A stretch of DNA of 64,000 nucleotides from a virus (lineage: Duplodnaviria; Caudoviricetes), in IMG/VR virus record IMGVR_UViG_3300031992_000042, positions 41,696-105,695 of that record; one strand, given 5' to 3'. The notes beneath the pieces were generated by a model. It saw only the letters and a list, made by a program, of their open reading frames with translations. It made no database searches and was not told where the DNA came from. Position numbers and translations under genes: made by a program. This document shows positions 1-60,870 of the stretch, one piece after another (position 1 is the stretch's first letter; every line of letters begins with the position of its first letter).

Positions 1-3000
1 GTGCCAGCTATTGCGTTAGCAAATTGCTGTTGTTTAGCATCAGATAAGCTCTCCCATTTTTGAGATAACGCGAACAATGTATCAAACGAACTACGTTTAT
101 TTCCGTATTCGTCGTACATTCTTATGCCTTCTTCTTCAAGAAGCTTTGCAACAGCAGAACCACTTACAGCATTACCATTTTCGTCGTAGATAAGTTCGTT
201 TGTTCCGATCTTATTCATACGTCCAAAAATAGTATTTAATGTACGACCTGCTACATTACCACCTATTTGAGTAGTAGATGTGATAGCAGTTAACATAGCT
301 GAAAGCTGTGCAAAAGTAGTTCCGTCTGCGGCAGCAGCTGCACCAGCCTTTTCAATGCCTTTTTCGATTTCTGCGGCATTTGTAGCGGCATTATCGCCCA
401 ATGCAGTAACTATATCTGCGGCTTGTTCTGCCTGAGAAACAAGACCTGTATTCATTGCGACAGTAATAAGCTTTGTTGCGGCATCTACTTTTGTACCGGA
501 AACTTTAGAGAATTTAGAAATAACACCAAGACGTTCATCTACTTCTTGATCACTTAATCCTTGACGATAAAGTGTAGCAGCGGACTGAGTAATCTCAGCT
601 ACTGATACTTTCATTTCTTTAGCTTTATCGATTAATGTATCTCCAAGGGTAGAAATTTGTTCATCTGTTTTTAGAGTGATCATCTGAATAGTGTTCATCG
701 ACGCATCAAACTGTTTTACAAAGTTTGTTGTCTCTGAAATTGCAGACTGGAACAAACGTCTGGTAAACATGTTGGACATATATCCAAACGTTGATTTAAA
801 CTCTGTTTTAAGAATTTTGGCACCCTGACCAAGAGCAATCATTGCTGGATTAGCTCTTCTTTCAAGCTGGTCTAACCCTTCATTTATCCTATCGTATTCA
901 TTTTTGGAATATTGACCTTCATTATACTGGTTACCAACTTGCTTTCTAAGAGTATTTATCTCTTGTTTTCTTGCGGCTGAAATAACAGATAAAGAATTTT
1001 TACTCTTTAAGCCTTGTTTTATCTGTAATGACTCTAAAGCCAGTCTGCCAGCCGTCTCGTTTTGTGTTGTGTATTCAGCTGCTAAACTTGCTCTAGCATC
1101 TTGAGCATTTGCAATACGTTGGTTAGCGACTTTAATAGCATCTTCGTATTGCTTTTGGTATGCAGAATCAACCAAACCTTTATCAAGACGGTTTTGCATC
1201 CACGTAATACCATTTTGCTGCTTGGATATTCTTTCATCATATTTATTTAGTGTCTCTTTTTGTTTGCTTAAACCAAAACCGTTTAATTCTTTTGTAATAT
1301 CATCTTCAAGCTGTTTAGCATCAAGCATTATTCCGTTTGTAAAACTTTTATGCATGTTTTCAGTAACTTTATCTCTTGCTTGTGCTATCTGAGACATCCA
1401 AGCCGAACGTTGATCTTCTAAATCTTTTGTTCCTGTAAAAGCTGCATCAGATGCAAGTTCTTCTTCAAGAGCGTTTAAGGGTTGTAAATTTTCAAAAGTA
1501 CGATATTGTAAATAATTATATTGACGTTCTGCCAATGTCTTTTCATCATTTAATTTATTCTCTTTTCCTCTTTGCTCTCTCCAAAGTTCGTCCCCATAGG
1601 TTCTTGTGTCTGATAATATCTGGTTAAACCTATTTCCTACTTCTAAAGCATGTTCATATTTACTTAAATCTGCAAGAACTTTTTCTCTTTGTTCTGTTTG
1701 CTCTGCTTTTTTAGGCGTTTGCGGTCCCCATATCGCGTCAGCACTTTCAGACTGGTTTGTAGACGTCCCGCCTTGAATAGGCATACTTGCAGAACCCGAA
1801 GCTTTTGGATTTTCAACATAAACCAAATTGCCAGTATTTTTATCTTCATAAACAATATTGCCTTTTTCATCTCTGATGATATTATTGTTAGCAACAATTG
1901 CAGTTTCTGGTTTTGCAGGTTCTTTCGGTTGTTCTGGTTCTTTAAATGCCTCAGCCTGTTTGCGAAGCTCAACAACTTTTGATACAAGTGTTTGTCCTAC
2001 AGCATCTGTTGCATTTACAAAATTAGTTCTAAAGTCATCGCCATATGTACGAACAAGATCGCTTTCAAGCATACCGAATTGATCTATGGCGTTTCTTGCA
2101 GTTCTAATACCATATCTGGCTTCTTGTGCTTTAGCCCACTGCTCTTTAGTGTCATAGGCTTTATCGCCTAACATGAATTTACCAGTAGTTGGATCTCTAT
2201 AATCATCTGCAGCTAACGTCAATTCAGCAGCAGCAGCATTTATTAAGCCTTGAATATATTGACCTTCATCATTTGTAATATAAGCTCTCTCGCCTGTGCC
2301 AAATTGATGATGAAGCATACGCATCGTCTGCATCAGTTTGATGCGTTCAGGACCAGCATCACCATATCCGAGCTGTTTATCCATTGCTTCATATATAGCA
2401 TCCATTTGAGTGGGATCAACATTGCCTGTGCGATAAAGCTGGTTTGCTTGAGCAATAGCCATCATATGGTTTGACATATATCTAGAAGGCAAGTTAATTT
2501 CATCGATGCCCATATCTCTAAGGGCTCTTAAATTGATATATTCTCCATTGGATGCTTTATATATATCTGGATGACTCGCATCTATATACGTACCTTCACG
2601 AGTTTTTACAGCGTTTTTACGATCTGGGGATACGATCATGTCTTCGTCAAACTTAAACAGATCTGTACGCTTTTCTGAGAATTTAGTATATTCTTTACCT
2701 AAACCTAAAGCAGCCCAAACAGGATCATCTTTTTCTAAAGTATAAGTTTGTGCTTTTTTAGGAGTAGAACCAATATCATATATACCTGCCATTCTCTGAG
2801 CCGCATATACAAGCGCTTGGTTTTCTGGTCTTGAATAGTCGACCTGCATTATTCTGATACCAGAAGAACCTGTACCCATTGGCATAGTCGCATACAAATT
2901 GCGTTCTGCTTGAAGTCTATTTTGAACAGACCAGCTCTTTAATTGTTCTGGCGTATATACAATATCTTCACCTTTAACATCCGAGTCTTTGTATGCACCC

Positions 3001-5894
3001 ATTCGTTTTAAAGAAGCTTGTACCGCATCGGCAAGTTCTTTATCGTAAATTGCTTTTACTTGGTCTGCATCGTAGTCCATGCCTTGAAGAATTCGTCTAT
3101 CTTTTTCAGAAACATACATTCCTGTAGAAGTTGATATGCCAAATCCTTTATAAATAGGTTCTGCGTCAGCTGCCAAATTCTGCGCATAGTACATATTGCC
3201 GTATCCAGTAGGAGAGCGAACAACCGCTACATTGGCTTGATCTTTTCTGTTAAAGTCAAGCACTTTACCTTGCGGTAAAATGATCATATCTCGAATATCT
3301 TGGTCGGATAATCGAGCGTTTGCTTCTTTGTCTAAATATGAGCGAGCTTTCGCAATAGACGCATCTGGAACAGTCCCATCTTTAGCCAACAATATCGTCG
3401 CTAAAGGGCTTGCTGCAGCGCGAAGGTTTGCAATTTTGTCATCGTTGTCAAAGTTGATATATTTACCAGCAATTAAGTCGTTGTAAAGAGAAGCTCGCAT
3501 ATTATCAATTCGTGAACGAGCTTCTGTTGACGCTAATAACTGTGAATTGCCACCGAATAAAGGATTAACCTTTCGACTTAGATAGTCTTCTTTATTGCCG
3601 AATACATATTTCAACTGACCTTCTTCGGTATCAAGTTCTTGCATTCGCCTCATTGCCATTTCAATTTGATGTTGTCTTAATTCAGGAGAAAACATCATAA
3701 AAGACGACATCTGAGTACCTAAGTTATCTGAAGCAACTTGATCTAAGTCATAGTCAGCATGATAACTCATAGGATGACGCTGTAATAATGCGGTGAACCT
3801 TCTACTTGCGATATCGCCAGATACATAATTACCATTTTCGTCTTTAAGAACACCTTGGTTCTTAATAACATCCATCGGTATATATCCTTGATAATCTGCG
3901 ATATTAAATAATTCGCCGTTCGGACCAGGAGCCATTAAACGACCTTGTTCGTCAAGTAAACCAGTTTTCTTGCCAAACGCTCTTAAGTCGTTCCCTTCAA
4001 AAACAAACGCAGAACCTTTAAGACCGACTCCGCCTCTGAATTGACCAGAATGTGGCATAACTGAACTTGCAAAGAAAGCACCGCCGTCTCCGGGGGACAC
4101 TCCGCCAAGTTGATCTTTTAACCGACTTGTATCAACTACAGCAAAACGTTTACCGTCTATATTTATCCCAAGGTCTGATGTATTCGTCCATGCTTTGTTA
4201 AGCATTTCAAGATGCTTACCATACTTCTGTGCAGTAATACCATCTTTACCGCCAACGCCGTTTTGAATTAAACGATCTATTTCTGCGTCGTCGAAACCGC
4301 GCCAATATGTACCACGAATACCACGAACAGCTTCATCAGGATGGTTTCTAATCCATTCCGCTTCTTGCTCGTTAACTCTATTAAAAGCATTTTGCTCAAT
4401 CATACGAACAATAGTGTCCTGACCTGTGCCATGAATACTCTGTGCGATAAACTTGGCATTGCCTAATTGAGCGCCATTTGGATTAAAAAGGTTTTCTAAA
4501 AACTTTTGATGTTCTGGATTTTTCGCATCATATCCAGCTAATGATACAATACGAATTGTATCGCTCACGTCTTGGTTGTTTTTCCATTTACCGCCACCCA
4601 AAAGTCTTGTATTATGACTTTCAGAGATCATAACACTCCTAGGATCGCCTAATGCAACTTTATCGCCTGTAAATGGAGAATATTTAGATACTACAAGCTG
4701 ATCTTGAATACGTTTGCCTTCTCCTTGAAGTTTACTCCACGTGTTAGGATTGGCAGAATTTGTCCATGCACGAGTATCTTCCATACCTTCAATGTCTTGC
4801 ATGGCAAGCATTGCTCTGCCTGACGTAGAGGATGTTAAACGTTGCATTAACGTTCTTTTATCTGATCCTGTTGCTTTATATGCATCAATAGCATTGCCCT
4901 TATAACCAGAAACTCTAACTAAAAGATCATCATATAAAGCTTTTCTAAATCCTTCCCATTCAGATCTTGAAATTTCGTCTTTAGTTTCAAGTACGCCACG
5001 TTCATCTCTTCTGCTAATACCAGAGGCTATTGCAGCTTTTACTGCAACAGAATTGTTTTTTAGAATATTATCAAGCTGTTTTCTATAAGCAGTGTCGAGC
5101 ACCATCGACTGATATGACTTATCAAACGTCTGAAAGTCCCGGCCCTGAGATCTGAAAGTTGCCTTGAAAGACTCGGGAAATAAGTCTTCTGGTTTACCTG
5201 TATATAACCCAGCACTTACATTTTGTCTAACATGACCGTATCTTGCCTTCTGGTAAATTTTATTCATGTTAGCTGGAGTAATAGACGGAATAAGATACTC
5301 AATCATCCTATCAAGGTTGAATTCAGCATCTGTATTAGATAAGCCATGTTTGTTTAATAAACCTCTTATTGCAGGGTCCATTTTTGTTGGGTTAGTTCCG
5401 CCTGTTAATTCTTTTGCAATTTGTCCTACGTCTTTTGAGAGAATTGAACTGCCTGCTTTACTTAAGCTACTTATTCTACTCCGAACGATAGAAGTTAATT
5501 GTGGAGCAATAGTATCAAACTGATGTTGCACAGCAGATGGAAGATCTCCAAACCATTGTTTTGCTATTTGCGCACTATAAGATGTTGTACCAAGCTGAAC
5601 ATCTCTTAAAGCATTAAGCTCTAAAATATTATTATTTGCACCACGCTCAAGCGCAACACGCTCAGCATCGGAAGAATATGTTTTATTTTGAAGCTTCTCT
5701 AATTTGTCATTTAATGCGTCAACAACAGTAACTGAACGTTCAAATGAATTATCAAGAATTTTACTAACATTTGGCATTTCCGAAATACTTGTTTTTAATC
5801 CATCAATGCCTTGTTTAATGGTACTAATTTGTTGTTTCGCATCTCCAAAGTCCATGTTAGCAGATATATTAAGTTTAATTTCATTCCACGGCAT
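1..5894 (-). CDS. Tape measure protein (partial, runs off window start) with an N-terminal YonO/RdRP-like RNA polymerase domain
   Basis: ATG at 5894 with AAAGGAG RBS (MPWNEIKLNISANMDF). The frame appears open to position 1, since no closed long ORF is listed here. TMP core VKQFDASMNTIQMIT..LYRQGLS near 550-720 is in the same frame as GDGG..QFRGGVGLKG, VVRSP and GMDYDADQ. Position downstream of tail tube and chaperones fits a TMP. Confidence 0.85.
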   Translation of the reverse strand, partial: MPWNEIKLNISANMDFGDAKQQISTIKQGIDGLKTSISEMPNVSKILDNSFERSVTVVDALNDKLEKLQNKTYSSDAERVALERGANNNILELNALRDVQLGTTSYSAQIAKQWFGDLPSAVQHQFDTIAPQLTSIVRSRISSLSKAGSSILSKDVGQIAKELTGGTNPTKMDPAIRGLLNKHGLSNTDAEFNLDRMIEYLIPSITPANMNKIYQKARYGHVRQNVSAGLYTGKPEDLFPESFKATFRSQGRDFQTFDKSYQSMVLDTAYRKQLDNILKNNSVAVKAAIASGISRRDERGVLETKDEISRSEWEGFRKALYDDLLVRVSGYKGNAIDAYKATGSDKRTLMQRLTSSTSGRAMLAMQDIEGMEDTRAWTNSANPNTWSKLQGEGKRIQDQLVVSKYSPFTGDKVALGDPRSVMISESHNTRLLGGGKWKNNQDVSDTIRIVSLAGYDAKNPEHQKFLENLFNPNGAQLGNAKFIAQSIHGTGQDTIVRMIEQNAFNRVNEQEAEWIRNHPDEAVRGIRGTYWRGFDDAEIDRLIQNGVGGKDGITAQKYGKHLEMLNKAWTNTSDLGINIDGKRFAVVDTSRLKDQLGGVSPGDGGAFFASSVMPHSGQFRGGVGLKGSAFVFEGNDLRAFGKKTGLLDEQGRLMAPGPNGELFNIADYQGYIPMDVIKNQGVLKDENGNYVSGDIASRRFTALLQRHPMSYHADYDLDQVASDNLGTQMSSFMMFSPELRQHQIEMAMRRMQELDTEEGQLKYVFGNKEDYLSRKVNPLFGGNSQLLASTEARSRIDNMRASLYNDLIAGKYINFDNDDKIANLRAAASPLATILLAKDGTVPDASIAKARSYLDKEANARLSDQDIRDMIILPQGKVLDFNRKDQANVAVVRSPTGYGNMYYAQNLAADAEPIYKGFGISTSTGMYVSEKDRRILQGMDYDADQVKAIYDKELADAVQASLKRMGAYKDSDVKGEDIVYTPEQLKSWSVQNRLQAERNLYATMPMGTGSSGIRIMQVDYSRPENQALVYAAQRMAGIYDIGSTPKKAQTYTLEKDDPVWAALGLGKEYTKFSEKRTDLFKFDEDMIVSPDRKNAVKTREGTYIDASHPDIYKASNGEYINLRALRDMGIDEINLPSRYMSNHMMAIAQANQLYRTGNVDPTQMDAIYEAMDKQLGYGDAGPERIKLMQTMRMLHHQFGTGERAYITNDEGQYIQGLINAAAAELTLAADDYRDPTTGKFMLGDKAYDTKEQWAKAQEARYGIRTARNAIDQFGMLESDLVRTYGDDFRTNFVNATDAVGQTLVSKVVELRKQAEAFKEPEQPKEPAKPETAIVANNNIIRDEKGNIVYEDKNTGNLVYVENPKASGSASMPIQGGTSTNQSESADAIWGPQTPKKAEQTEQREKVLADLSKYEHALEVGNRFNQILSDTRTYGDELWREQRGKENKLNDEKTLAERQYNYLQYRTFENLQPLNALEEELASDAAFTGTKDLEDQRSAWMSQIAQARDKVTENMHKSFTNGIMLDAKQLEDDITKELNGFGLSKQKETLNKYDERISKQQNGITWMQNRLDKGLVDSAYQKQYEDAIKVANQRIANAQDARASLAAEYTTQNETAGRLALESLQIKQGLKSKNSLSVISAARKQEINTLRKQVGNQYNEGQYSKNEYDRINEGLDQLERRANPAMIALGQGAKILKTEFKSTFGYMSNMFTRRLFQSAISETTNFVKQFDASMNTIQMITLKTDEQISTLGDTLIDKAKEMKVSVAEITQSAATLYRQGLSDQEVDERLGVISKFSKVSGTKVDAATKLITVAMNTGLVSQAEQAADIVTALGDNAATNAAEIEKGIEKAGAAAAADGTTFAQLSAMLTAITSTTQIGGNVAGRTLNTIFGRMNKIGTNELIYDENGNAVSGSAVAKLLEEEGIRMYDEYGNKRSSFDTLFALSQKWESLSDAKQQQFANAIAG

Positions 5895-6007
5895 AAATAT
5901 TTCTCCTTTTCAGTTTAGTTATATATAAACAGATAAACTCTGAAATTTCCGAATTTTGACTTTCACTCCTTTTGTGTGTAAACTATATACGAAAGGAGAT
6001 AATATAT

Positions 6008-6172
6008 ATGAAAAAAGAAAACAAAGATAAACAGTTCGAAGAAGACTTCGAACCTGAATGGTTAAAAAAAGCAGCCCAAACAATGCTGCAAGGACAAAAA
6101 GAATCCTACGGAGATGAGGATCAAAATGAGTTAATGTGTTTAATTAACTCAAATGATGAAGATCAATTATGA
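6008..6172 (+). CDS. Small acidic hypothetical protein, opposite strand to the late operon
   Basis: AAAGGAGA RBS before ATG 6008; followed by hairpin 6178-6204. Confidence 0.45.
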   Translation: MKKENKDKQFEEDFEPEWLKKAAQTMLQGQKESYGDEDQNELMCLINSNDEDQL

Positions 6173-6177
6173 AAAAT

Positions 6178-6204
6178 AGGGGAGTGCCATAAAAGGCACT
6201 CCCC
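6178..6204. terminator. Hairpin terminator, possibly bidirectional
   Basis: GGGGAGTGCC-ataaaa-GGCACTCCCC between convergent genes. Confidence 0.7.
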
Positions 6205-6205
6205 G

Positions 6206-6598
6206 TTAAGTTTCTTTAAATTTATTCCATTCTGCATCTTCATTTTCTTTTGTAATATGATTTTGTTTCATAAAATCCGTCACAGCTTTAATATAATCTG
6301 TTTCTTCTTCTAATATAGCTGGTTCAATCTTAGTTGTAATAATATCATAAATCCATTCAACAACTTTTCCTTTTTTAGATTCAATTACATTTCGTTTTTC
6401 AGATTCAAGCATTAAAATATTTTCAATTTCAGTCCAGCCAAAAGTATAGTCAGTAACCTGAGCTGGATCTAATTTTAACGTATACATAATATGTCGCCAA
6501 TCAGGTTCAAGATACCAAAATCCATTATCCGCCTGAATGATTGTTTCTTCCTTTACTTTGTTAATAAACTCTGTATATAACATATTAACTCTCCTCAA
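6206..6598 (-). CDS. Hypothetical protein
   Basis: ORF track; GAGGAG RBS suggests start at the second Met. Confidence 0.6.
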   Translation of the reverse strand: MRRVNMLYTEFINKVKEETIIQADNGFWYLEPDWRHIMYTLKLDPAQVTDYTFGWTEIENILMLESEKRNVIESKKGKVVEWIYDIITTKIEPAILEEETDYIKAVTDFMKQNHITKENEDAEWNKFKET

Positions 6599-6768
6599 AA
6601 CTTGCTTCTAAAGTTAAAGTTTTAATTTTTTCTCCAGAAAGCAATTCTTCTTCTTTATAATCTATTTCATCGATATCGATCCTGCCAAACTTGTTGTGAC
6701 GATACATAACAATACTGTCCTCTGGATACACTTCCAAAATTTCTTTTAATTCTTTAATTGTCATAATA

Positions 6769-6972
6769 TCACCCCAATATCACAGCAGGACTGACGTCAT
6801 AGCCGTTTTTATTATGTTTGTCCAAAAAATAAAAATTATCATCAACAGCTATATCAGTAATCTCTTTATAATCAGTAACTACAGGTAAATCCTGTGGCAG
6901 GTCACGTAGTTCTTTTATGAGATCACGCACTGTCATTATTCTCACCTCCAAGGATGTAAAAATTTGAACCAA
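6769..6972 (-). CDS. Hypothetical protein (MTVRDLIKEL-type small phage protein)
   Basis: ORF track; GGAGGTG RBS before internal Met. Confidence 0.55.
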   Translation of the reverse strand: MVQIFTSLEVRIMTVRDLIKELRDLPQDLPVVTDYKEITDIAVDDNFYFLDKHNKNGYDVSPAVILG

Positions 6973-7739
6973 GATTTCTTTTCTTTTTCTTCTTCCGGGA
7001 TTCCGAGAATTTTCTCAGGTTCTTCTGTTTTTACTTTTTTAATCTCTTTAGGTTCGACTTCTGTATAATTAATAATCTGACAAAGCTCTTCCGCTAATAG
7101 ATGAACTTTACGAATATTATGCTTTAAATATACTTCTTTCATTTCTTCGAATTTAAAATACTCAGGAGTCTCATCAGCAAAAGGATTTTCTAAGGCAATA
7201 TCCATTAAATGAACAGCATATTGTCTCACGTTGTCGCTATCTTTTAAATTATATGCTTCTGTCATTTTATAAAGAACATATTTAATATCGTCTGTTTCTT
7301 CTTTTTTCTTCTGCTGTTCTTCTTCAAGTTTCTTTTGTCTTTCTGCTTCTTCTTTTTGTTTTAATTCTTCTGCTTCACGTTTTTCTTCAAGTTTTCTAAT
7401 TGCTTCACGTTCCTTTTCCTTTTGTTCTTCAAGCTCACGTTTCGCTTCTTCTTTGTCGAAAACATAAGGATTTTCAGGATGTGATTCGCATAACTTTCGC
7501 GCATAATCTAACAGTTTACGATAATTAAGTTTAGCTTCTGGTCCATGATTTTTCCATCTTGTATAACTTAATTTCATCTGAAAAAATAATTCAGCATCAT
7601 CGCTATTTTCCTGAAATGGATTATTTGGATCTAAATCCATTATGCAACGAGCGCCATGCTCAAACAATCCGTTTTCTTTTGCCTGAAAACCTTCAACCAT
7701 TTCTTTATATAAAGTATATAAAGAGTTATTGCGTCCCAT
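6942..7739 (-). CDS. Hypothetical protein with internal duplication (ENPF..motif) and charged coiled coil
   Basis: ORF track, AAGGAGG RBS. Confidence 0.65.
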   Translation of the reverse strand: MGRNNSLYTLYKEMVEGFQAKENGLFEHGARCIMDLDPNNPFQENSDDAELFFQMKLSYTRWKNHGPEAKLNYRKLLDYARKLCESHPENPYVFDKEEAKRELEEQKEKEREAIRKLEEKREAEELKQKEEAERQKKLEEEQQKKKEETDDIKYVLYKMTEAYNLKDSDNVRQYAVHLMDIALENPFADETPEYFKFEEMKEVYLKHNIRKVHLLAEELCQIINYTEVEPKEIKKVKTEEPEKILGIPEEEKEKKSWFKFLHPWR

Positions 7740-7751
7740 ATTATTTCCTCC

Positions 7752-8132
7752 TTAAAATAGACCTTCAGCCCAATCAAGACTGCCACCACCAAGTTGTTTT
7801 TCGGCAGCTTTCTTTGCTGATGCTTTATCATCACTTTTAATAATTTTAATTTGACCCATAAGTCCCATAACACCAGTATTAGTTTTTCCACCATTTTTAA
7901 TAAGCGGATTAGCTGCTTGAATAATTTTTGAAGAATCCTTTGCAAAGCTATTTCCATATAGATTAGAAATGGACTCATAATTTAACCGTTTTCCTAGTGC
8001 TTCTAATACTGCATTAAACCATATATAAGCCATATTGTTTATTTTGTTTTCGTCTACCTCGCCCAGGTGAGCTGCTACGGCAGCTGCCGCCTCATCTAAA
8101 CTTAATGCTTCGCCTGGGCTTCCTTGTTTTTT
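7752..8132 (-). CDS. Tail assembly chaperone C-terminal extension (gpGT-like, -1 frameshift product)
   Basis: Frame is open upstream of the annotated Met back to the slippery site AAAAAAC (8126-8132). Confidence 0.65.
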   Translation of the reverse strand, partial: KKQGSPGEALSLDEAAAAVAAHLGEVDENKINNMAYIWFNAVLEALGKRLNYESISNLYGNSFAKDSSKIIQAANPLIKNGGKTNTGVMGLMGQIKIIKSDDKASAKKAAEKQLGGGSLDWAEGLF

Positions 8133-8653
8133 CTTGCTGCTTCTTCTTTTTCGTCTATATGATTAAGACGCCCAAAGATTTTACAAATACGGTCAATTGT
8201 CTCTGCATCTAAGTTGTCATAGTTATCTCTGACTAAAGTAGAATTATCAAATGCAGCAACAAGAAAATCATATAATAATTGGTCTGCATCGCGGCGTTCA
8301 TCTAAAACGCCTTTTCCATAGGTTAAGAACTCATGTAAAGGTATGGCTTTGATAATTCCGTAAGCAGACGCAGCTTTATTTCGAAAGTATTTAAGCTTGG
8401 TAGGTTTAAGTTCTATTTTTTGATCTCCTACCATTACGCAGTTTTCTTCTAATAAATCGGATGGTTTTTCCTCTTTTTCCGGAGAAACTTTAGGTATAGT
8501 TTCAACTCTTACAGATTCTTGCGGAATAGTATTAATTGTAGGAGTTTGACTCGGTTGTTCTTTATTCAATTCAACCGCTGCAGGTTTTTCTTTATCAACA
8601 ATATTTTCTTCTGGTAATTCTTTTAATTTGCTTATATTTGGAAATTTAGTCAT
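8102..8653 (-). CDS. Tail assembly chaperone (gpG-like)
   Basis: Directly after tail tube gene; A-AAA-AAC heptamer near its 3' end. Confidence 0.65.
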   Translation of the reverse strand: MTKFPNISKLKELPEENIVDKEKPAAVELNKEQPSQTPTINTIPQESVRVETIPKVSPEKEEKPSDLLEENCVMVGDQKIELKPTKLKYFRNKAASAYGIIKAIPLHEFLTYGKGVLDERRDADQLLYDFLVAAFDNSTLVRDNYDNLDAETIDRICKIFGRLNHIDEKEEAARKNKEAQAKH

Positions 8654-8719
8654 TAACCCTTTCTCCCTTCAAAGACGCTTTTGCGTCTGTTTAGACATCT
8701 ATTGTCTAAAAAATAAAAA

Positions 8720-8746
8720 AGGGGGGTACCATATAGGTACCCCCCT
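8720..8746 (-). terminator. Rho-independent terminator after tail tube gene
   Basis: AGGGGGGTACC-atata-GGTACCCCCCT with T-run on minus strand. Confidence 0.75.
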
Positions 8747-8782
8747 GTTCTTAATCCTTGGTACCTTTTAAAACCTTTTAGA

Positions 8783-9941
8783 TTAAGCATTCTTGCCAAC
8801 AAAGGCGATAGAATAGGTAGCTTCGTCAGGGCGCTTGGCATCCATAGCAGCCAGCGTGAAGCCGAAGGTATTCGCAGTCTTGTAGGACGCATCGAAACCC
8901 GGAGCCTGCGTAACACGAGCATTGTAAACACGAACCAGAACATAACCGATAATAGAGCTATCTGTGCAGTTTTCGCCAGAACCGTAAACCGGATATTTCA
9001 TGATCGCTTCACCACGAGCGGAGCTGCGGTTGTCAATGTTTGCTTCTTGAGCTTCTACAGAATAGAAATAAGAAACAGCAACATCGTTTTCAACGTCGCC
9101 TGCAAAGAAGATAATCTTAGCGACTTCGCCAGATGTATCAACCTTGAACTTTCCTTTAACAGGTGTTTGCGCTGTTTCTTCAAGCCCAGCAATAGAAACA
9201 GAACCTGTAATTGGAATCTTTGCTAAATCAACTTCGTTCGTGCCGTCAACGGTCAGAATTTCAGTAATTGGCATCTGATAATGTTCGTTCGTTTCAAAGT
9301 TGGTAGCATTCGCCATAACAAACAGGTCAGCTTCAAACTTACCTGAAGTAATGGACATCTCAACATTTTGTTCAACTGAGGGCGCTAACCTCAGCCCGCT
9401 TATTAAGCTGCTGCACATTGCTGTGCAGTTCAGACTATCTCTTCACCCTATTAAATAGGGGCTCTTCTTTTCGACCCGCTTGGGCCTACACCTTTCGGTT
9501 AGTCGTTACACATTCAAACAGAAATCCAATGGAGATTATTGGTTTTATTAAGTTTTCCTCTGATACATTTTATAATCGCACTTGCATCTGCCCCGGTTTG
9601 ACGTTGAGCTTCTGCTGCAGATTCATATTCAACACCAGTTTCAATAAATAATCATATAACCACCTATTTCTGTTCTTAGCACGGGATTGTCCCAATGGGA
9701 GTTTCCCCGTTTAGAAGAGTAATTTATAGTCCGCCCAAGAGATTGTTTAGGTGGACTGACCGGGTAAATAAGCCACAGGATACAGAGACCAACCAGCGTT
9801 AATTTCTGTATAGTTAACCTGAGGCGTTACGGTCGCATTAGTGAGTTCATCGAAATAGAACACGCGACCATCGCAGCGTTTAAACCACAGCCGCGGCACG
9901 TCGGCAACGTATCCGTTAAACTCTTTAACATAAGTAGCCAT
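8783..9941 (-). CDS. Major tail (tube) protein, split by group I intron; exons 9749-9941 and 8783-9363 (257 aa)
   Basis: Splicing restores the frame ..PGQST-F-EMSITSGK..; located between neck genes and chaperones. Confidence 0.7.
9364..9748 (-). mobile_element. Group I intron in tail tube gene (no intact endonuclease)
   Basis: 5' exon ends in U, intron ends in G; P7 elements GTAACGACTAA and GAAGAGATAGTCT; in-frame junction. Confidence 0.85.
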
Positions 9942-10068
9942 AACACATGACCTCGCTTTTGTATATTTATAACAACAACCAATTCTCTCCCACAAGTTTC
10001 AGTTGCGGTTATACGATGAGGTCCTTCATATAACCTTTGATGCCAGTATTAGCCCTGACTCAAGGCTC

Positions 10069-10533
10069 TCAATAAACCTTCATGTAATAGAAAGCAATTG
10101 ATTTTCGAATATACCCGACAGTACGGGTTCCAAGATCCCAGTCTCCGGCTATCCAAAACCGATAACCAGTATCTGCAATATAACGCTGACTTGTTAAATC
10201 GTGATAGATTTTTTCTGCAATAAGATCTGCTCTACTTATTAATCTATCGTCTCCAACGTTATGCATCTCTTCTTGTTTAACATAAATATCGAATGTCATC
10301 ATATTTCTACGAACATTAGGAACATTTGTGTCACTTCCCTGTTCATCTGAATATATGATCCTACATACTTCATCGGTTAATAATTCATTTGTAAAACCAG
10401 CGCGAATAAAGTATCTTTCACAAAATTGAAGAATACCAGTTTTAGGCGGTATTTTCATAAGACGTTTAAGTTCGTAGTCGCGCCAGATTACGTCACGAAT
10501 AATTTTATTCCAAGCATTAACCCAGCCTAACAT
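10069..10533 (-). CDS. Putative tail terminator/completion protein
   Basis: Synteny and size. Confidence 0.5.
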   Translation of the reverse strand: MLGWVNAWNKIIRDVIWRDYELKRLMKIPPKTGILQFCERYFIRAGFTNELLTDEVCRIIYSDEQGSDTNVPNVRRNMMTFDIYVKQEEMHNVGDDRLISRADLIAEKIYHDLTSQRYIADTGYRFWIAGDWDLGTRTVGYIRKSIAFYYMKVY

Positions 10534-10976
10534 TATGAAATACCTCCTAATAAAGTAGATAATTCTTCTATTATTTCTGGCTGTGCTGATTCAATAAACC
10601 GTTGCTGGACATCTGTCCAATCAAGCATATTGTAAATTTCAGACTCAATAAAAAAAGAAATTTTTTTGTCAAAATTATCGTTTATTAAATCAACTAACCC
10701 TCTATTTTTAGATAAAAAATCAACAGATAGTTTAGCTATATCAATTTCAGCCTTTGCTTTAATTGCTCCAATTCCAAACTTAACTTCTGCAGATAAATAA
10801 TGAGTTAGCATATTATATATTTTTTTATCTTCTTCAGTACTAGCAGCAGATGCACTTATAGTTAATTCGTTTCTCATCATTCCGTATAATGCATTTTTAA
10901 AATACAAAAAAGATGTATCTCCAAAAATAGAGTATAAATCAGTACCCATGTATACCACCCGGCTTTTTCTTTGCAT
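10533..10976 (-). CDS. Putative neck/tail completion protein
   Basis: Synteny. Confidence 0.45.
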   Translation of the reverse strand: MQRKSRVVYMGTDLYSIFGDTSFLYFKNALYGMMRNELTISASAASTEEDKKIYNMLTHYLSAEVKFGIGAIKAKAEIDIAKLSVDFLSKNRGLVDLINDNFDKKISFFIESEIYNMLDWTDVQQRFIESAQPEIIEELSTLLGGIS

Positions 10977-11673
10977 GAAACTTTAACGTTCCATATTCGC
11001 CAAAAATATTTATGCCTACTCTATTTATATCAACAATGTAATATGTTTCATTTCCCCACTCAAACTCATCTTTTATATGAATTTGGGCAGTTTTAGGATT
11101 GTATTGAGTTGTAAATATAGTCAAAGCATTAACAGTTTCTCCGGGTGTCCCAGACACAGTAACATCTTCAGGTCTTCCGTCGTAACGGAAAGCATTGCAT
11201 GGAAGCCTGTCAACAATTTTAATTTTGCCTGATTTAGATCCACGTTTAACATAACCTAAATCATCGACTTCTGCATCTTTAAATCGTTCAATATTTAACA
11301 TCATATTGCATCGTAAAGCACGAGAAGGAGCATTATTCGATTGAAGATGAACTTCCCAGTCTAATATGTAAACCGTATTATCTGGTTCAATAAGCATATC
11401 ACCTTTTCGTATTCCGCTTGAGCGAGAACATCTGATGTTCATATTATTATCTGTATTTTCATATCGACTCTTTGTAGAATCTGGATATATTTCTCCACGA
11501 ATATATGTCGGCTTATAGTCTTTTTCAAACTGGTCATACCAATTATGAAGAAGTTCAAAATCCATATTCGTATCTGGAATATCCTGTTCTAAGAATTTAT
11601 CAAAGTCAGCGGCAAGCGTCCTCGGGACCCTAAACCGCTTGGTAGTACCTTGCGGTACATAGGGAATAGACAT
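10939..11673 (-). CDS. Putative head closure / head-tail joining protein
   Basis: Synteny; beta-rich sequence. Confidence 0.5.
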   Translation of the reverse strand: MSIPYVPQGTTKRFRVPRTLAADFDKFLEQDIPDTNMDFELLHNWYDQFEKDYKPTYIRGEIYPDSTKSRYENTDNNMNIRCSRSSGIRKGDMLIEPDNTVYILDWEVHLQSNNAPSRALRCNMMLNIERFKDAEVDDLGYVKRGSKSGKIKIVDRLPCNAFRYDGRPEDVTVSGTPGETVNALTIFTTQYNPKTAQIHIKDEFEWGNETYYIVDINRVGINIFGEYGTLKFHAKKKPGGIHGY

Positions 11674-11682
11674 ATTGCCACC

Positions 11683-12012
11683 TCATTTCATTGTTCTTGC
11701 AAGATATTCACTAAAAGGCATTGTTGTAGCTTTCACGCCCTTAAAAGAAAGATTTTCAGGCAATCGTCTAACAGCATTTGCTTGATCTAAAAGCTTATGT
11801 CTAATTTTTTGAAACCTTTCTACTAATTCAGGAGACCAGTCTTGTTTTTGCTTGTTTCCTGAAAAATAATAAAACGCATCTTCTACATCCATTAGTATAC
11901 GTTTTAACTCTAAACTGAGCATTTCTGTATAGTCGATAAAGTCATATTCTTTTTCGACTACAGTTTCAAGATCTTTATTTTTATATTCGATCTTCACTCT
12001 AAAATCACTCAT
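11683..12012 (-). CDS. Hypothetical morphogenesis-region protein
   Basis: ORF track. Confidence 0.55.
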   Translation of the reverse strand: MSDFRVKIEYKNKDLETVVEKEYDFIDYTEMLSLELKRILMDVEDAFYYFSGNKQKQDWSPELVERFQKIRHKLLDQANAVRRLPENLSFKGVKATTMPFSEYLARTMK

Positions 12013-12024
12013 TTACTTTCACCC

Positions 12025-12468
12025 TTAAGTCTCGTTTGTATCACGAGCCATCATTTTATGAAAAACACGAATCCGATCAAGTTCGAGATCATCGATTTCC
12101 TGTTGTATCGATTTATATCCCTCTTTTGCTCCTGTTACAGATAACGCATCTGTTGTATAACTCATAGCTGCATCACCAGCAACATCGTTAAAAACTTTAC
12201 GATAAAAATTTAACTTGCAAAGAATATAAATGTATTCTTCTTGGACAATATCAAAATCATGATCATAACAAACATTTTCTTCTTCGTCAGTTGTAAACAA
12301 AGTTCGGTCATAACTATTAGGGTGGTTGACGTCAACAAAAAACCTTTTAATTGCCCATACTACGATTTTTACAAAATCTTCTGGATACATAGGCGTAGGT
12401 GTACTTTGCCAATCTAACTCTTCTTTGAGCTGATCAGCTGTTTCCTGAATATTGTACACATCAGCCAC
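12025..12468 (-). CDS. Putative head-tail adaptor
   Basis: Helical ~150 aa protein after capsid genes. Confidence 0.5.
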   Translation of the reverse strand: MADVYNIQETADQLKEELDWQSTPTPMYPEDFVKIVVWAIKRFFVDVNHPNSYDRTLFTTDEEENVCYDHDFDIVQEEYIYILCKLNFYRKVFNDVAGDAAMSYTTDALSVTGAKEGYKSIQQEIDDLELDRIRVFHKMMARDTNET

Positions 12469-12479
12469 TCCTTTCTAAA

Positions 12480-12947
12480 TTATTGTTCGCTCTCTTCTTC
12501 TTCGAGAAGATCACGATTGGGCATTTTAGCATTCAGAACCTTCAACTTGCTTGCTGGAAGGTCCATCTTTTTGCCAACTTCCCAAATTTCATGGATTTCA
12601 ACAGGATCTTCAATCTTGTTAATCCAAGACTTAAAAGCATTAAAAGGCTTTTTAAGATTTGCTTCAATTTCTTTGGCGTTATGATGTACAGCCGTAGATT
12701 CATCCGTGAATCCGCCTACATCTTCAAGTGTTAAGTCTTTGCCATTATCATCTACAGGAACTAACATTTTTCCTGAGAAGAATTTACGATGAGTACAAAT
12801 ACTCTCTATATAGAGAATATCGTTAACAGACAGCACGGCAAAGCTGCCCGGTTTAATATTTAAAGATTGTTGACCGTTGTTAACATAAACACCGATAGCG
12901 TGGTTACAACGATTATATACGCGATATCTCGCATCTCCGTTAATCAT
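12480..12947 (-). CDS. Hypothetical protein downstream of capsid gene
   Basis: ORF track. Confidence 0.6.
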   Translation of the reverse strand: MINGDARYRVYNRCNHAIGVYVNNGQQSLNIKPGSFAVLSVNDILYIESICTHRKFFSGKMLVPVDDNGKDLTLEDVGGFTDESTAVHHNAKEIEANLKKPFNAFKSWINKIEDPVEIHEIWEVGKKMDLPASKLKVLNAKMPNRDLLEEEESEQ

Positions 12948-12989
12948 AATTCCTTCATACCTTTCATCGAAATAAAAATATCAAAAATA

Positions 12990-13017
12990 GGGAAGCGAGC
13001 CGTAAAGCTCGCTTCCC
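12990..13017 (-). terminator. Terminator after major capsid gene
   Basis: GGGAAGCGAGC-cgtaaa-GCTCGCTTCCC followed by TATTTT on minus strand. Confidence 0.75.
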
Positions 13018-13034
13018 GTAAAACCAAATAATGA

Positions 13035-14036
13035 TTAGCCGATCTCATACGCACCGATGGTGGGAATGGAACCAACAACAAACGCAGCACCGAAGCGCTG
13101 AGTCAGTTCAGTTTCAAACGTATGATCATCGATAGTCTGTTGAGTCATGCTATAGGTCGGACCTTCGTTCAGAACCTTCAGGTTCTTCTGATCGTTGGAC
13201 ACACCGGCAGAGATAATGTAAATCCAGTCGGGGTTCAGGATCGGAGTGGTCTTGCCATCTTCATAAGCATTGATCATAGAGATAACAGCAGCGCCATTGT
13301 AACGACCAAGGTAGCCATTGTTATTCTTCTCATCGATCATGCTGCCACTATACTGAACACTATTGTTGTTAACAGGAGCGCCAGACAGAGCAAACAGACC
13401 TTCAACAGCAGCAGCGTCACCAACAAGGCTTACGCCGCCAAGCCGCTTAAAGTACATCAGCTGATCGTCGATAGTGTTCTTAACGATACCAGTACCAGTG
13501 CCGTAGAACGGAGTGCTGTAAGCACCGCTGGACAGAGCATCATGCAGAACCTTTTCAACATACTTCAGCTTCAGCATAGTGAATTCTTTGTTTGCATCAC
13601 GAATCAGGTCAGGCATATTGATCCGGTTCATACGAATGTCCCAGATATTGATAGCCGGACGGCTCGCGATTTCGAAAGTATTAATAGAGAACTGACGATC
13701 AGTCACGTAGCTCCGAGCGGTGGTAGCACCAGTCGCTTGGATAAACGCCTTGATGCCAGCAGTCTTCATGCGATACATGGGACGGTCACCCAGAGCTACG
13801 TTACGCACATCCGCAAAAGTCTCGATGAAATTCAGAGAATTCTGTTGCAGTTCATTGATGGTGAACGCAATAATCTGACCAATTTCATGCTGATGCTGAG
13901 GAGACATATCCTGAGCCAGCTCGTTGACGATAGCGGAAGCCTCTTCGACCTTGTCGGATTCGACCCGTTCATTACGGACCTGAGCAGCCATTACTTTAAT
14001 GAGCTTGCTGTCCTTATCAACCCTAATTTCAGCCAT
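13035..14036 (-). CDS. Major capsid protein (HK97 fold likely)
   Basis: 333 aa, strong RBS, highly expressed codon bias, position after protease and decoration genes. Confidence 0.8.
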   Translation of the reverse strand: MAEIRVDKDSKLIKVMAAQVRNERVESDKVEEASAIVNELAQDMSPQHQHEIGQIIAFTINELQQNSLNFIETFADVRNVALGDRPMYRMKTAGIKAFIQATGATTARSYVTDRQFSINTFEIASRPAINIWDIRMNRINMPDLIRDANKEFTMLKLKYVEKVLHDALSSGAYSTPFYGTGTGIVKNTIDDQLMYFKRLGGVSLVGDAAAVEGLFALSGAPVNNNSVQYSGSMIDEKNNNGYLGRYNGAAVISMINAYEDGKTTPILNPDWIYIISAGVSNDQKNLKVLNEGPTYSMTQQTIDDHTFETELTQRFGAAFVVGSIPTIGAYEIG

Positions 14037-14050
14037 TGCAATTCACCTCC

Positions 14051-14497
14051 TTAACCAATTGTACCGTCAGCCTTCAGGGTGTACACAGCACCAGCAGTAG
14101 GCGTTCCGGTCACGCAGGTAGTAACAAACTCTTCGCCCAGTAACAGAGCGTGAGCCCGCATCAGTTCACCGACAGGCTGCGTATAATTACGCTTGTCGTA
14201 TTCCTGATAATCTTCAACATTAAATTGACGTTCGTTTTCAACTAAGAAATGGCGCTTGCCAATTTCCTGAACTTGAAAACGATAGGCAGTCATGCCACCA
14301 TAGATATCGGTAACTTCCATGCAAAGGAACTTCGCACCAGTATCAGCAGCCGGAAGAACCAGTGCATCATTGGTAGGAGGAGTTGTGGAAGCTAAACCCT
14401 GATCCATGATAAGACCATTCGGCACAGGATTAGCAGCACCATTCTTCAGAGTGCCTTCATAAACATAACCCTGAAGCTTTGTCATATATCCAGCCAT
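14051..14497 (-). CDS. Putative capsid decoration protein
   Basis: Size and position between scaffold and MCP. Confidence 0.55.
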   Translation of the reverse strand: MAGYMTKLQGYVYEGTLKNGAANPVPNGLIMDQGLASTTPPTNDALVLPAADTGAKFLCMEVTDIYGGMTAYRFQVQEIGKRHFLVENERQFNVEDYQEYDKRNYTQPVGELMRAHALLLGEEFVTTCVTGTPTAGAVYTLKADGTIG

Positions 14498-14526
14498 AGC
14501 TAGTCATACCTTTCATTTAGATTTTC

Positions 14527-15882
14527 TCAAGCCTTTTCAAGCAGAGAATAAGACGCCGTTTTGGTTTCTTTTTCAAGCAGAGAATATTTCCCTGTTGCAT
14601 TAAGATCACCCATAAACGGATTGATTTCGCCTACAACTGGTTTCGCTTCGGCAATTTGCTTCTGCTCTTTCAGCTCAGCGATTTCAGACTTAAGCTCGCT
14701 AATCATGTCAAGCATTTCTGCAATTAACTGTTCAGCGGTCTTTTTCTGTTCTACATTAATAACAGGTGGGTCTTCTTCAGCAGCAGGTTCGGTTTCGCTC
14801 TGGTCGTTGCCAGACCCTGAATCACCGGACTCACCGGAATTATCCCCATTTTGTGTTTCAGAATTGTTGGTTTCACCGCTAGTTTCTCCGTCTCCAGATT
14901 CGCCTGCGCCGTCTCCATCCGCTTCTGCAACATGAATACCATCAACTGTTTCAACCAGAGTACCTTCCTGGACATCATTACTGCATGTTTCAATCGTTAC
15001 AGTCTGGCTAACTTCTTTGCCAGTTTCTGTATCGTATGCAACACTGGTATGACGTTCTTCATGATATTCACGAGTTACAACAGCTGCGTTTTCTGCCTCA
15101 GCAGTTTCTGTGCTTTCAGCAGTTTCTTCTTCAGCCTTTTCCTTTTTCTTGCAGGCTGCATTTTCGGTTTCTTCTTCAGATTCGGCATTTTCAGCTTTAT
15201 CTTCTGTTTCAACCTTTTCTTCTTCAGCCAGTTCAGGCTGTGTGGCTTCGGTCTCAACGACTTCAGCCTTGGTTTCGACTTCTGCCATTTCACTTTCACC
15301 CTTTCTGGTTTCATCTGTGTTCTTCTGTGCTACTAATTCAAGTGCCACAGCTTCTTCACAGGCGGGATAGGTCACAATGGCTGTGCCTTCCAAATAGTTG
15401 TTTTCAGACGCATCGATCAGAATTGTTTCATCATCAAGTTCGGTGTACTCACCAACAGAAAGTTCGAAAGAAAATTTCAGAGCATTATCGGCAAATAATT
15501 CGGATATTGCTTTGCTTAACTTTTTGTTGCGCTTTGGAATACGAGCGTATCCAACCAAAGCACAGCCGTTCTGTATAGTTTGTTTTTCGAATTGATAAAA
15601 ACTTCCGATCTGCGTTGAATGGAACTCGCCTGTTCTGACATCGTACAGATGACCAAGGCGATTATAATTTCCATTAGTCAGAGCCTTGACGTCCGCATAA
15701 AGCGGAAGACCTACATACCGCGCTTCATTACCTACAATTTCATCGATGAAAGCTTCGGTAACTCTTGCTCCGTTAAGATTAGCCTCAGGAGCTTCGCATA
15801 TGCGAGCCTTGACAGTCATAAAAACATCCGACTGCTGGATTTCGGAAATGGTAGACGCAAAGACAAGTTTGCTCATAACCAT
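14527..15882 (-). CDS. Prohead protease / scaffold fusion
   Basis: N-terminal LGH..FSFE protease-like motifs; long acidic low-complexity C-terminus. Confidence 0.65.
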   Translation of the reverse strand: MVMSKLVFASTISEIQQSDVFMTVKARICEAPEANLNGARVTEAFIDEIVGNEARYVGLPLYADVKALTNGNYNRLGHLYDVRTGEFHSTQIGSFYQFEKQTIQNGCALVGYARIPKRNKKLSKAISELFADNALKFSFELSVGEYTELDDETILIDASENNYLEGTAIVTYPACEEAVALELVAQKNTDETRKGESEMAEVETKAEVVETEATQPELAEEEKVETEDKAENAESEEETENAACKKKEKAEEETAESTETAEAENAAVVTREYHEERHTSVAYDTETGKEVSQTVTIETCSNDVQEGTLVETVDGIHVAEADGDGAGESGDGETSGETNNSETQNGDNSGESGDSGSGNDQSETEPAAEEDPPVINVEQKKTAEQLIAEMLDMISELKSEIAELKEQKQIAEAKPVVGEINPFMGDLNATGKYSLLEKETKTASYSLLEKA

Positions 15883-26226: not shown

Positions 26227-26419
26227 ACGAGTATGGCATTAAACCTGACTAAAGATTCATACACGGGAGTCTCGAAAGAGACTCTCGTAATGAGTCCTTA
26301 GTGACTCTGGTATAATTTTACCCGACGACTATTTTTATCGGCTCCAAAATTTAGGGGCGGGATATTTTTTTGGGGAGCACGATGTTTCCGGTCTTAACTC
26401 ACGTGACTTGATCTAAAAA

Positions 26420-26441
26420 GACGGCGCAAGCGCCTGCTAAT
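26420..26441 (+). promoter_or_regulatory. Repeated palindromic motif B (GACGGCGCAAGCGCCTGCTAAT); copies at 27150 and 28148
   Basis: Three near-identical intergenic copies. Confidence 0.6.
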
Positions 26442-26475
26442 GCTGTGAAGATAAGTCTTATCTTCGTAATAATAT

Positions 26476-26718: not shown

Positions 26719-27196
26719 TACCTGCCACGACTACTGCTTTGCGCTGGTCAAGGTGGAAGAACCTTGTATGCATCCTCTGCTCATCCACGTTGGTGAGCGG
26801 AATTATGCATACAGGGACGCTTTCAAGAACAGGTGGCACGAAAAACTGTTCTTGTCTGACATGTCCTACATGAAGTTTATCGTTTCGAAGAGATGCCAGC
26901 TCTGACTGACGATAGCTGCACGGGTCCCGGGGGATGACGGGTCCCCTGGGGTTTGCCCGAACTTTTATATCGATATTATCTTAATCTTCATCGCTTCAGC
27001 GTTGAAGCGACTGAAGCGAGCTTCATGGGTTCCTCCTTTCTTAGGGACTGGCGTGGGAAACCAGTCCCATCCTTTCGTTAATTTGGCTTCGTGAGCTGTG
27101 CCATAAACAGCTCACTTTTTTTGTCTTAACCATGCTACTTGGCTTTAGCGACGGCGCAAGCGCCTGCTAATACCACGAACAAATCTCTACAAGGAG

Positions 27197-27881: not shown

Positions 27882-28139
27882 ATGCAGATTCTTGATAATG
27901 TCATCATTCTTTCTTTGCCTGTGCTTGCATTTATTGCAGGCAAGATTATTTCTGACAGATACCATGAACGTCAGATTCAGGAACTTGAGTATCAGCTTCG
28001 ACTGTATGCCGCTGAACGTGGAGTGGGTTACGTTGCTCCTCCTGCAAAGCGTAAGTATGTCCCTATAGGTCAACCTTTTATGGACAAGCTGAAAGAGAAC
28101 GGTCATGCTACCCAAGCTCTTCGGAACCCTCATACTTGA
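27882..28139 (+). CDS. Small membrane-anchored hypothetical protein
   Basis: N-terminal hydrophobic helix. Confidence 0.5.
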   Translation: MQILDNVIILSLPVLAFIAGKIISDRYHERQIQELEYQLRLYAAERGVGYVAPPAKRKYVPIGQPFMDKLKENGHATQALRNPHT

Positions 28140-28374
28140 CCTAACGAGACGGCGCAAGCGCCTTCTAATTCTATGAAAAAGGAATCTTCATGATTCTTTT
28201 TATCGCATGAATGAAATCCATCACTCTTCGTGCAAGTGGCGTCACGTACCCACTATAAATACCGCCGCGTGATAGTCTGCATCGGACGATAAAAGATGGC
28301 GTTGGTCTGCACGAATCTGAAGCAGGCAGAAATACAAAACAAGTAATAAAAAGCAAATTTCGGAGGTAACTAAA

Positions 28375-28764: not shown

Positions 28765-29052
28765 TAAGACACTCCTCGGCATGGTGAGGAGACTATTTAA
28801 GTAAGATTAAGGAGTCAGACTTGATGGAAGTCTGGCTCCTATTTTTTACTTAACCCTGTTTTTTGGTATAGCCTGTCTCTTTTGTTTCTGCTGTCGCAAC
28901 ATGACAGTAGACATAAGAAAGATAGTTCGGTACCTAAATTTGAAGACTTTCTAAGATGGCTATAAGGGGAGGAGAATTTTTGGGGGCATATATTTTCTGT
29001 GCCGCAGATTTTTTGTAAGCCTCTTACATTTTTTAAGATAGGAGAACAATCG

Positions 29053-35003: not shown

Positions 35004-35036
35004 GCCAGCCGCAAGCGGCTGGCATTATACTTTGAA
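35004..35036 (+). promoter_or_regulatory. Repeated palindromic motif C (GCCARCCGCAAGCGGYTGGC-nn-TATAC-nn-TGAA); copies at 38209 and 42784
   Basis: Three intergenic copies with a compensatory stem change. Confidence 0.6.
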
Positions 35037-37367: not shown

Positions 37368-38053
37368 GGCAGCCTGGGTGGGGTCGGTATAGGCGCGTAC
37401 AGGTGCGTTGGGTTATGTTAGGGCAGTCAAGGTTAGTTGCGGCTCGAACGGGTTAGTACGGGTGTGTTATGCCAAGGCAGTCATGGTGGCGCGAGATAGG
37501 TTACGTTGAGAACGGGTTTGTTTAGCAGTGGCAGTCGTGGAATGTAAAGGCACGTTAAGTTGTGTAGGGGATAGCATAGGCAGTCGTGGTACGCTTAGTT
37601 TCGTATGGACTAGTTGTGCAATGGCAGTCACGGTGGGTTGAGTAATGTTACGGCAGGGACAGGCTTGGTTAGTTCTGGCAGTCTAGGTTAGTAATGTTGC
37701 GTAGTGGTTCGTTTAGTACGGGCGGCGTATGGCAGTCTAGGTGTGGACAGGAGGCGGTTTGTCTGTGTTGGTTCCGTTACGGCAGTCGAGGTTAGTTCCG
37801 TTATGTTACGTACAGGTGGGCTATGGCAGTCATGGTGAGCTGTGTTAGCGAGAGGCGTGGTCTGGTTGCGTCGAGGCAGTCAAGGTCAGGTAATGCCTGG
37901 TCGGTCGGGTTACGTTATGATTTGTTGGCGTAAGGGTCGGCAGTCGGGGTGTGTACCGGAGTGTTAACGTCCGACACGTTATGTTCGGGCTGTCTAGGCA
38001 AGATAAGGTATCGTATGCTGAGTTGGGTACTGCTATGTCTTGTAGTGGCTGTC
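37368..38053 (+). repeat. Array of 14 GGCAGTC anchors separated by 7-11 pentamers (mostly G-K-H-N-N); candidate guide-RNA array
   Basis: Anchors at 37368, 37422, 37476, 37530, 37579, 37623, 37677, 37731, 37781, 37825, 37875, 37939, 37988, 38047; spacings 54,54,54,49,44,54,54,50,44,50,64,49,59. Confidence 0.9.
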
Positions 38054-39368: not shown

Positions 39369-39369
39369 T

Positions 39370-39476: not shown

Positions 39477-39482
39477 GAGCAC

Positions 39483-48432: not shown

Positions 48433-48471
48433 CTTCTTATTTAATCAATACTTTGTATTCAGTTTGTTAAA

Positions 48472-60847: not shown

Positions 60848-60870
60848 TTTTTATTATTTAAATTGGAGTG

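Follow-up and report, generated by a model that had tools for sequence, protein, structure and literature searches.

The tape measure protein (TMP) gene of IMGVR_UViG_3300031992_000042, a linear 105,695-bp virus contig from sheep gut with an estimated completeness of ~77%, encodes a polymerase part and a TMP part in one open frame. We analyzed a 64,000-nucleotide window of this contig (contig positions 41696–105695), and coordinates below refer to the window unless stated otherwise. The polymerase domain is homologous to the YonO family as judged from profile–profile comparison, and its predicted fold is that of a two-barrel polymerase. Fusion of a polymerase to a TMP is not a new idea, having been demonstrated experimentally for gp96 of P23-45, a precedent that an earlier reading of the window (hereafter the original prediction) did not mention. 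The system described here is probably an independent variant of the TMP-fused virion polymerase, not a new kind. By analogy with gp96, we judge it likely that the virus packages a TMP-fused polymerase of the YonO lineage and expels it to transcribe the first-entering genes.

A single gene with polymerase and tape measure parts

The gene starts on the minus strand at an ATG (5892–5894) located 8 nt downstream of a ribosome-binding site, AAGGAG (5903–5908), and remains open to the window edge with zero internal stops (3–5894, aa 1–1964). In the whole contig, the frame extends past the window start to contig position 33541, giving a TMP of 4682 aa. The product is composed of a helical region (aa 1–400) and a complete single-subunit two-barrel polymerase (aa ~400–1320), together its N-terminal third, and then a linker, a PF10145 body, two membrane segments and a helical ruler of ~2600 aa. 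The original prediction had read a series of polymerase motifs in frame and in order on this open reading frame (ORF), with DYDAD at 3063–3077, and had placed a TMP core on the same polypeptide. All of these motifs are present at the positions it gave, DYDAD exactly so; the core corresponds to PF10145 (PhageMin_Tail) at aa 1757–1964 (3–626, minus strand; Pfam E = 1e-24), and neither a stop nor a frameshift lies between the two.

The N-terminal region (aa 1–400, minus strand 4695–5894) is conserved and mostly alpha-helical, and its predicted fold consists of helices without an informative structural match. It is followed on the same strand by the polymerase domain, of YonO/RNA-dependent RNA polymerase (RdRP) type (aa 400–1320, 1935–4697), and by a low-complexity linker to the TMP body (aa 1321–1400, 1695–1934), where column conservation is 0.04–0.18 and the gap fraction 0.22–0.44; it is this collapse of conservation at aa 1320–1400 that marks the linker as variable. 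The body begins with a charged, helix-rich stretch (aa 1401–1756, 627–1694, minus strand), assigned from its composition and from PHROG tape measure families that match from ~aa 1397 on, and two hydrophobic segments are found beyond the window at aa 2052–2099. The PF10145 core, these hydrophobic/membrane segments and the gene slot flanked by the tail tube/chaperone genes and the distal tail protein identify the protein as a TMP. With tail length scaling at 1.5 Å per residue, a body of ~3280 aa corresponds to a tail near 0.5 µm. Contigs from RNA libraries of another sheep-gut study match parts of the gene at 100% identity, which we did not count as expression because DNA carry-over is possible.

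A homologue search with the full-length 4682-aa protein returned 28 metagenomic homologues of 3654–5892 aa, all with PF10145. Searching 1.84 billion representative proteins (clusters at 50% identity) with a profile gave 90 matches, 46 of them longer than 3,000 aa and nearly all others short fragments. The domain is present in all 46, at ~aa 400–1350 with one exception at aa 5–964; every one of the 46 is a fusion rather than a free-standing form of ~800–950 aa. An IMG/VR scan added one other example of the domain. One protein, P0077, adjoins a 1204-aa TMP gene and was considered as a free-standing copy or unfused ancestor. It was rejected since three gene calls there share one frame split only by two TAG codons, making it a fusion under a different code; gene callers split TAG-containing TMP genes and so create a false free-standing polymerase. 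In one further relative the TMP frame requires TAG to be read as Gln. Giant TMP genes with only in-frame TAG interruptions were seen in two relatives, L010 (at least 20, positions 2001–14420) and L026 (2, positions 6001–14814), and the tube gene of L026 is likewise split by TAG. This sequence pattern points to recoding of TAG, at a minimum in late genes.

The linker bears on a different explanation, in which the polymerase would not be in the virion: it could be cleaved off at aa ~1320–1400 during tail assembly to become a third, late intracellular polymerase, or it could act only in cis in assembly. Processing of TMPs is known from other siphophages, the low-complexity and poorly conserved linker divides the domain from the TMP body, and a tail tube would hardly hold a large folded domain. 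The fusion in all 46 long matches, with no free-standing copy found, suggests instead that the physical link matters, and the late tail module is a poor location for an enzyme needed in quantity early. Moreover, gp96, the sole tested case, is full-length in virions (PMC10770324). We give this explanation a small, though real, chance of being correct. Separate translation of the two parts would require another start; within aa 1250–1800 there are zero in-frame internal starts with a 5-nt Shine-Dalgarno match, and with no comparable site near the domain boundary, nothing suggests a separately translated TMP.

Four motifs on the minus strand define the polymerase domain. The first-barrel motif DGxG...Q-x-R-x5-KG, here GDGGAFF..GQFRGGVGLKG (aa 602–627, 4014–4091), supplies two basic active-site residues and aligns to DGCG...R..KG of the YonO family; G604, Q618, R620 and K626 occur in 46/46 homologues and D603 in 42/46. 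The GTQM motif (aa 726–729, 3708–3719; within LGTQMSSF, aa 725–732), aligned to the YonO-family YQM, lies in the connector between the barrels, with G726 and Q728 in all 46. At the start of the catalytic barrel, RSPT (aa 893–896, 3207–3218) aligns to RSPH of the YonO family; the overlapping VAVVRSP spans aa 889–895 (3210–3230), where R893 is found in 45/46 and P895 in 46/46. The catalytic loop is DYDAD (aa 940–944, 3063–3077), the DxDGD signature with Gly replaced by Ala. The original prediction had pointed to the retention of the three Asp alongside this replacement, and both parts hold across the family: D940, D942 and D944 are invariant in the 46 homologues, while position 943 is Gly in 23, Ala in 21 and Ser in 2. 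The Gly-to-Ala change is thus a common variant of a DxD[GA]D loop, the family consensus being D-[FYLVM]-D-[GA]-D, and DYDAD can be read as a DbDGD signature. K678, N906, Y1039 and K1046 are also invariant. One barrel therefore carries the DxDxD metal-binding triad and the second carries two basic residues, R620 and K626, as in the definition of the two-barrel (double-psi beta-barrel) RNA polymerase superfamily (PMC7824862).

The strict conservation of the Asp triad and the two basic residues in 46 diverged homologues indicates selection for catalysis. The domain might otherwise be viewed as a catalytically dead relic with a purely structural part in the tail, for instance as a head-proximal stopper, and the change from Gly to Ala in the signature loop could be taken that way. 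Besides the triad and the basic residues, however, ~35 positions are invariant or nearly so in sequences down to ~25% identity, which would be unexpected for a relic, and we find this explanation highly improbable.

Relation to YonO and predicted fold

Neither Pfam nor PHROGs has a family for the polymerase domain, and searches of PDB sequences with phmmer and with a profile gave no relevant match. Giant ‘tape measure’ genes from metagenomes can thus conceal a polymerase that is invisible to Pfam and PHROGs. The Pfam RdRP model PF05183 matched neither the TMP nor six aligned members at E up to 1, yet it does match the free 807-aa paralogue in the window. On sequence grounds, the domain is distantly related to PF05183 and falls outside that Pfam family in its modelled form.

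The original prediction had named two free polymerases in the window carrying the corresponding motifs, and had aligned the fused domain with them. Both polymerases were found (807 aa and ~945 aa), and the alignment proved to be real once profiles were used. Pairwise BLASTP of the domain against the 945-aa free polymerase gave only E = 0.013, yet with RSP and the Asp loop aligned; hhalign of 11 domain sequences against 18 of the 945-aa family gave E = 0.0029, and profile–profile comparison of 46 against 99 gave E = 2.9e-4 with a second collinear segment. Against a wide YonO profile comprising SPbeta YonO, phages Perkons and PMBT24, both window paralogues and others, the 46 domain sequences reached a probability of 98.5% and E = 2.6e-15 over 513 collinear columns. 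Controls against the same profile remained far above this, with E = 0.81 for the reversed query and 0.14–0.72 for ten column shuffles. Across the YonO profiles, hhalign probabilities were 98.5–98.6%, with E from 1.4e-15 to 2.6e-15 over 432–513 columns. In the alignment with the YonO family, which spans both barrels and the connector, the Asp loop is in register, as are DGxG, R..KG, TQM/YQM and RSP. Motifs that are invariant in 46 homologues and collinear at such an E-value occur far beyond chance, and this profile evidence shows the domain to be homologous to the YonO family. Its divergence is considerable: the free paralogues match the YonO group at E = 2e-116, compared with 1.4e-15 for the fused domain. 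Two weak profile matches act as bridges, P0104 in phrog_8308 and P0097 with a sub-threshold Pfam RdRP match. An ESM Atlas placement of the fragment P0077 in an RdRP cluster at 0.88 was below the trust level.

Structure prediction, as modelled, shows a two-barrel fold for the domain, matching QDE-1, RDR2, gp62 and gp96, with QDE-1 and RDR2 best. When predicted viral structures were compared, metagenomic phage proteins named RNA-dependent RNA polymerase matched best (E = 4.5e-13). That the domain is a polymerase, as the original prediction had proposed from motifs, is thus supported by YonO homology, the predicted fold and the conservation of catalytic residues. Structural alignments with QDE-1 and gp62 reach model residues 882–884, and the one with gp96 covers only model residues 25–666; the model hints that the domain keeps a C-terminal element (residues 667–884) that gp96 lacks.

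In Bacillus phage SPbeta, YonO is DNA-dependent, requires its Asp triad, and transcribes the phage late genes (Forrest et al. 2017, PMC5467207). The fused domain shares with it (phrog_8308) ~510 homologous columns, the motifs DGxG, R..KG, YQM/TQM, RSP and DxDGD, and an SPbeta-like genomic background; YonO itself is a free protein of 840 aa, whereas the domain here forms part of a virion protein. QDE-1 and plant RDR2 (PF05183) differ more widely, being eukaryotic enzymes of cellular RNA silencing that are RNA-dependent or dual-template, with 10–12% identity and no Pfam-level match to the fused domain. As the best structural matches of the model, these RNA-dependent enzymes nevertheless raise the question of other chemistry, with the module copying RNA like QDE-1/RDR or synthesizing primers for replication at entry. 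QDE-1 is described as copying both DNA and RNA templates (PMC9508822). We regard such a role as very unlikely, since the sequence relatives are of YonO type and YonO is DNA-dependent (PMC5467207), and the carrier is a double-stranded DNA tailed phage that itself encodes a DNA polymerase III alpha. No YonO structure is present among the PDB matches, so the top rank of QDE-1 may mirror what has been solved.

Comparison with gp96 and a proposed role in delivery

The TMP-fused virion RNA polymerase gp96 of P23-45 is a TMP of 5002 aa (Chaban et al. 2024, PMC10770324). Its two-barrel polymerase is N-terminal, with DFDGD at aa 779–783 and a minimal active fragment at aa 327–1124; the protein is active, flat and devoid of a clamp, and its targets for binding and transcription are the pre-early genes, including that for the free polymerase gp64 (PMC10770324). 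Such a fusion has been reported only in P23-45, P74-26, G20c and TSP4 (PMC10770324). In the phage collection, we found the gp96 type in 10 records, all Thermus phages, and our literature search found no paper extending the TMP–polymerase fusion to other lineages. Polymerases within very large virion proteins that are ejected at infection are also a feature of crAss-like (phi14:2 gp66) and N4-like phages, with which the fused domain here may be compared by analogy.

The protein described here resembles gp96 in having a polymerase domain and a TMP in a single polypeptide with the polymerase N-terminal. In contrast, no sequence similarity between the two was detected: the PDB profile search gave no match, and hhalign gave E = 0.023 for a misplaced alignment and E = 0.12 for one at the Asp loop only. 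Among structural matches of the fused domain gp96 ranks only fourth, and the predicted C-terminal region of the domain (model residues 667–884, aligned to QDE-1 and gp62) appears to be absent from it. The phages differ as well, with an SPbeta-like lineage of 37–40% GC from sheep gut, one relative of which has an integrase, compared with Thermus phages, and with two free polymerases here compared with one. By hhalign, the gp96 family matches gp64 at E = 2.4e-4; the fused domain does not match gp64 significantly (E = 0.095) and groups instead with the YonO-type enzymes of its own phage (E = 1.4e-15 against the YonO group). As each tethered polymerase is closer to the free polymerase of its own phage than to the other tethered one, the comparison favors two separate fusions, without amounting to proof at this depth. 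That the fusion arose at least twice, from a gp64-like source in Thermus phages and from a YonO-like one in SPbeta-like gut phages, is quite possible, if somewhat short of an even chance. In that case, the tethering of a polymerase to the DNA-channel-opening protein would be a recurrent solution. With the present phages, the putative TMP-fused virion polymerase extends from one Thermus phage group to a second, unrelated and mesophilic lineage in ruminant gut metagenomes. The YonO type of its enzyme is an argument that the fusions were convergent and that coupling the first polymerase to the DNA channel has a functional reason.

The original prediction had proposed that the fusion delivers the first polymerase with the DNA, and by analogy with gp96 such a delivery role is plausible. 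As a part of the TMP, the polymerase would be incorporated into the virion, as in P23-45. At infection, it would exit the tail with the TMP, its N-terminal, head-proximal end just ahead of the DNA, and the tethered enzyme, independently of host RNA polymerase, would transcribe the genes that enter first. Later classes could then fall to the two free YonO-like polymerases. If this is correct, one tethered and two free polymerases run a three-step transcription program largely independent of the host enzyme, though the phage group may be temperate. Temperate phages would be unusual among those with a virion polymerase; in relative L002 (29219–30822) a tyrosine integrase and a Tn916-type excisionase are encoded just downstream of the tail genes.

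A packaged and active polymerase might also serve a mainly mechanical purpose. From an anchor at the TMP pore, it would draw the 100–130 kb genome into the cell by transcription, with gene expression secondary. In the proposal of Chaban et al., translocation through the TMP pore and transcription are coupled (PMC10770324), and YonO is highly processive (PMC5467207). In addition, the two further polymerases could carry most of the expression, and an induced prophage, as suggested by the integrase in the relative, would not need an injected enzyme. A pulling role is compatible with delivery for early transcription and inseparable from it by sequence data; we assign such a primary function only a low probability.

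Several observations weigh against the delivery of a polymerase for early transcription. The sequence similarity to gp96 is undetected, leaving architecture as the sole basis of the functional analogy. None of the carriers is in culture, the domain being absent from 50,697 phage records searched with megablast and tblastn. Ala replaces the signature Gly here, though this is common to 21/46 homologues and active crAss-phage enzymes have a DFDxD loop. Given the integrase and excisionase in L002, an induced prophage would receive no injected polymerase, and its earliest genes would need another expression route too. The folded domain is predicted to be large (>100 kDa), with a C-terminal part that aligns to clamp-bearing enzymes, and would be difficult to accommodate within a tail tube or to move along one; a comparison with gp96 would naturally address whether loss of the clamp is required for tail passage. 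Finally, one copy of a 57-nt host-promoter-like element precedes the ORF of the 945-aa free polymerase by ~500 bp and the likely start of this enzyme by 773 bp.

Free polymerases, genome setting and repeats

Both free YonO-like RNA polymerases are encoded on the plus strand. The 807-aa enzyme (23296–25719) has DYDGD as its loop, with a Pfam RdRP match at E = 4.8e-10 and a tblastn match to SPbeta yonO at E = 1e-31. The ~945-aa enzyme (49298–52135, DWDGD) matches phrog_8308 at E = 1e-180; many of its homologues have PF05183. Its ORF is open from 49022 (1037 aa), and its homologues of 940–945 aa cover 91% of the query, placing the true start probably at 49298. The two enzymes are related to each other at E = 8e-26. 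A third long ORF (60868–63999) does not encode an RNA polymerase; its product, which runs off the window end, is the alpha subunit of a DNA polymerase III, with PHP, DNA_pol3_alpha and finger domains.

In nine relatives, the neighbors of the TMP gene follow the order of the SPbeta tail module, with YonB, YomX, YomW, YomU tube and TMP, and then Sipho_tail and YomG-like genes. At the capsid position of the window, a 333-aa protein has matches in Geobacillus virus E3 and SPbeta-like phages. The fusion and two free polymerases recur in a complete 126-kb relative with terminal repeats. The contig itself is from sheep gut; bovine and goat gut runs show weaker traces.

The window contains candidate promoter repeats that can be assigned to none of the polymerases, and sigma-70-like sites in 20–30 kb are not more frequent than in shuffles. 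The 57-nt element occurs in four copies (28919–28975, 39366–39422, 39423–39479 and 48468–48524) and consists of a palindrome (TAGTTAGGTACCTAACT-like), TTGAAG, an extended -10-like TGGTATAAG and a GGGGAG ribosome-binding site; its sequence looks like an operator with a host-type promoter. Two families of GC-rich hairpins are conserved, as are their tails. One, at 26406–26449, 27136–27179 and 28134–28177, is GGCGCAAGCGCC followed by TGCTAAT; the other, at 35004–35036, 38209–38241 and 42784–42816, is GCCAACCGCAAGCGGTTGGC followed by TATACCGTGAA. From their sequences, both could be terminators or phage-polymerase signals. At 37411–38002, a 26-nt unit that includes GGCAGTC is present in five spaced copies within G/T-rich non-coding sequence.

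Just upstream of the TMP gene, a 265-aa ORF contains a CT-rich low-complexity repeat (7210–7476) with very high depth of mixed origin in four of four metagenome runs, probably through cross-mapping. A 564-aa ORF at 17793–19487 matches the terminase large subunit's N-terminal domain (Pfam Terminase_6N, E = 7e-5).

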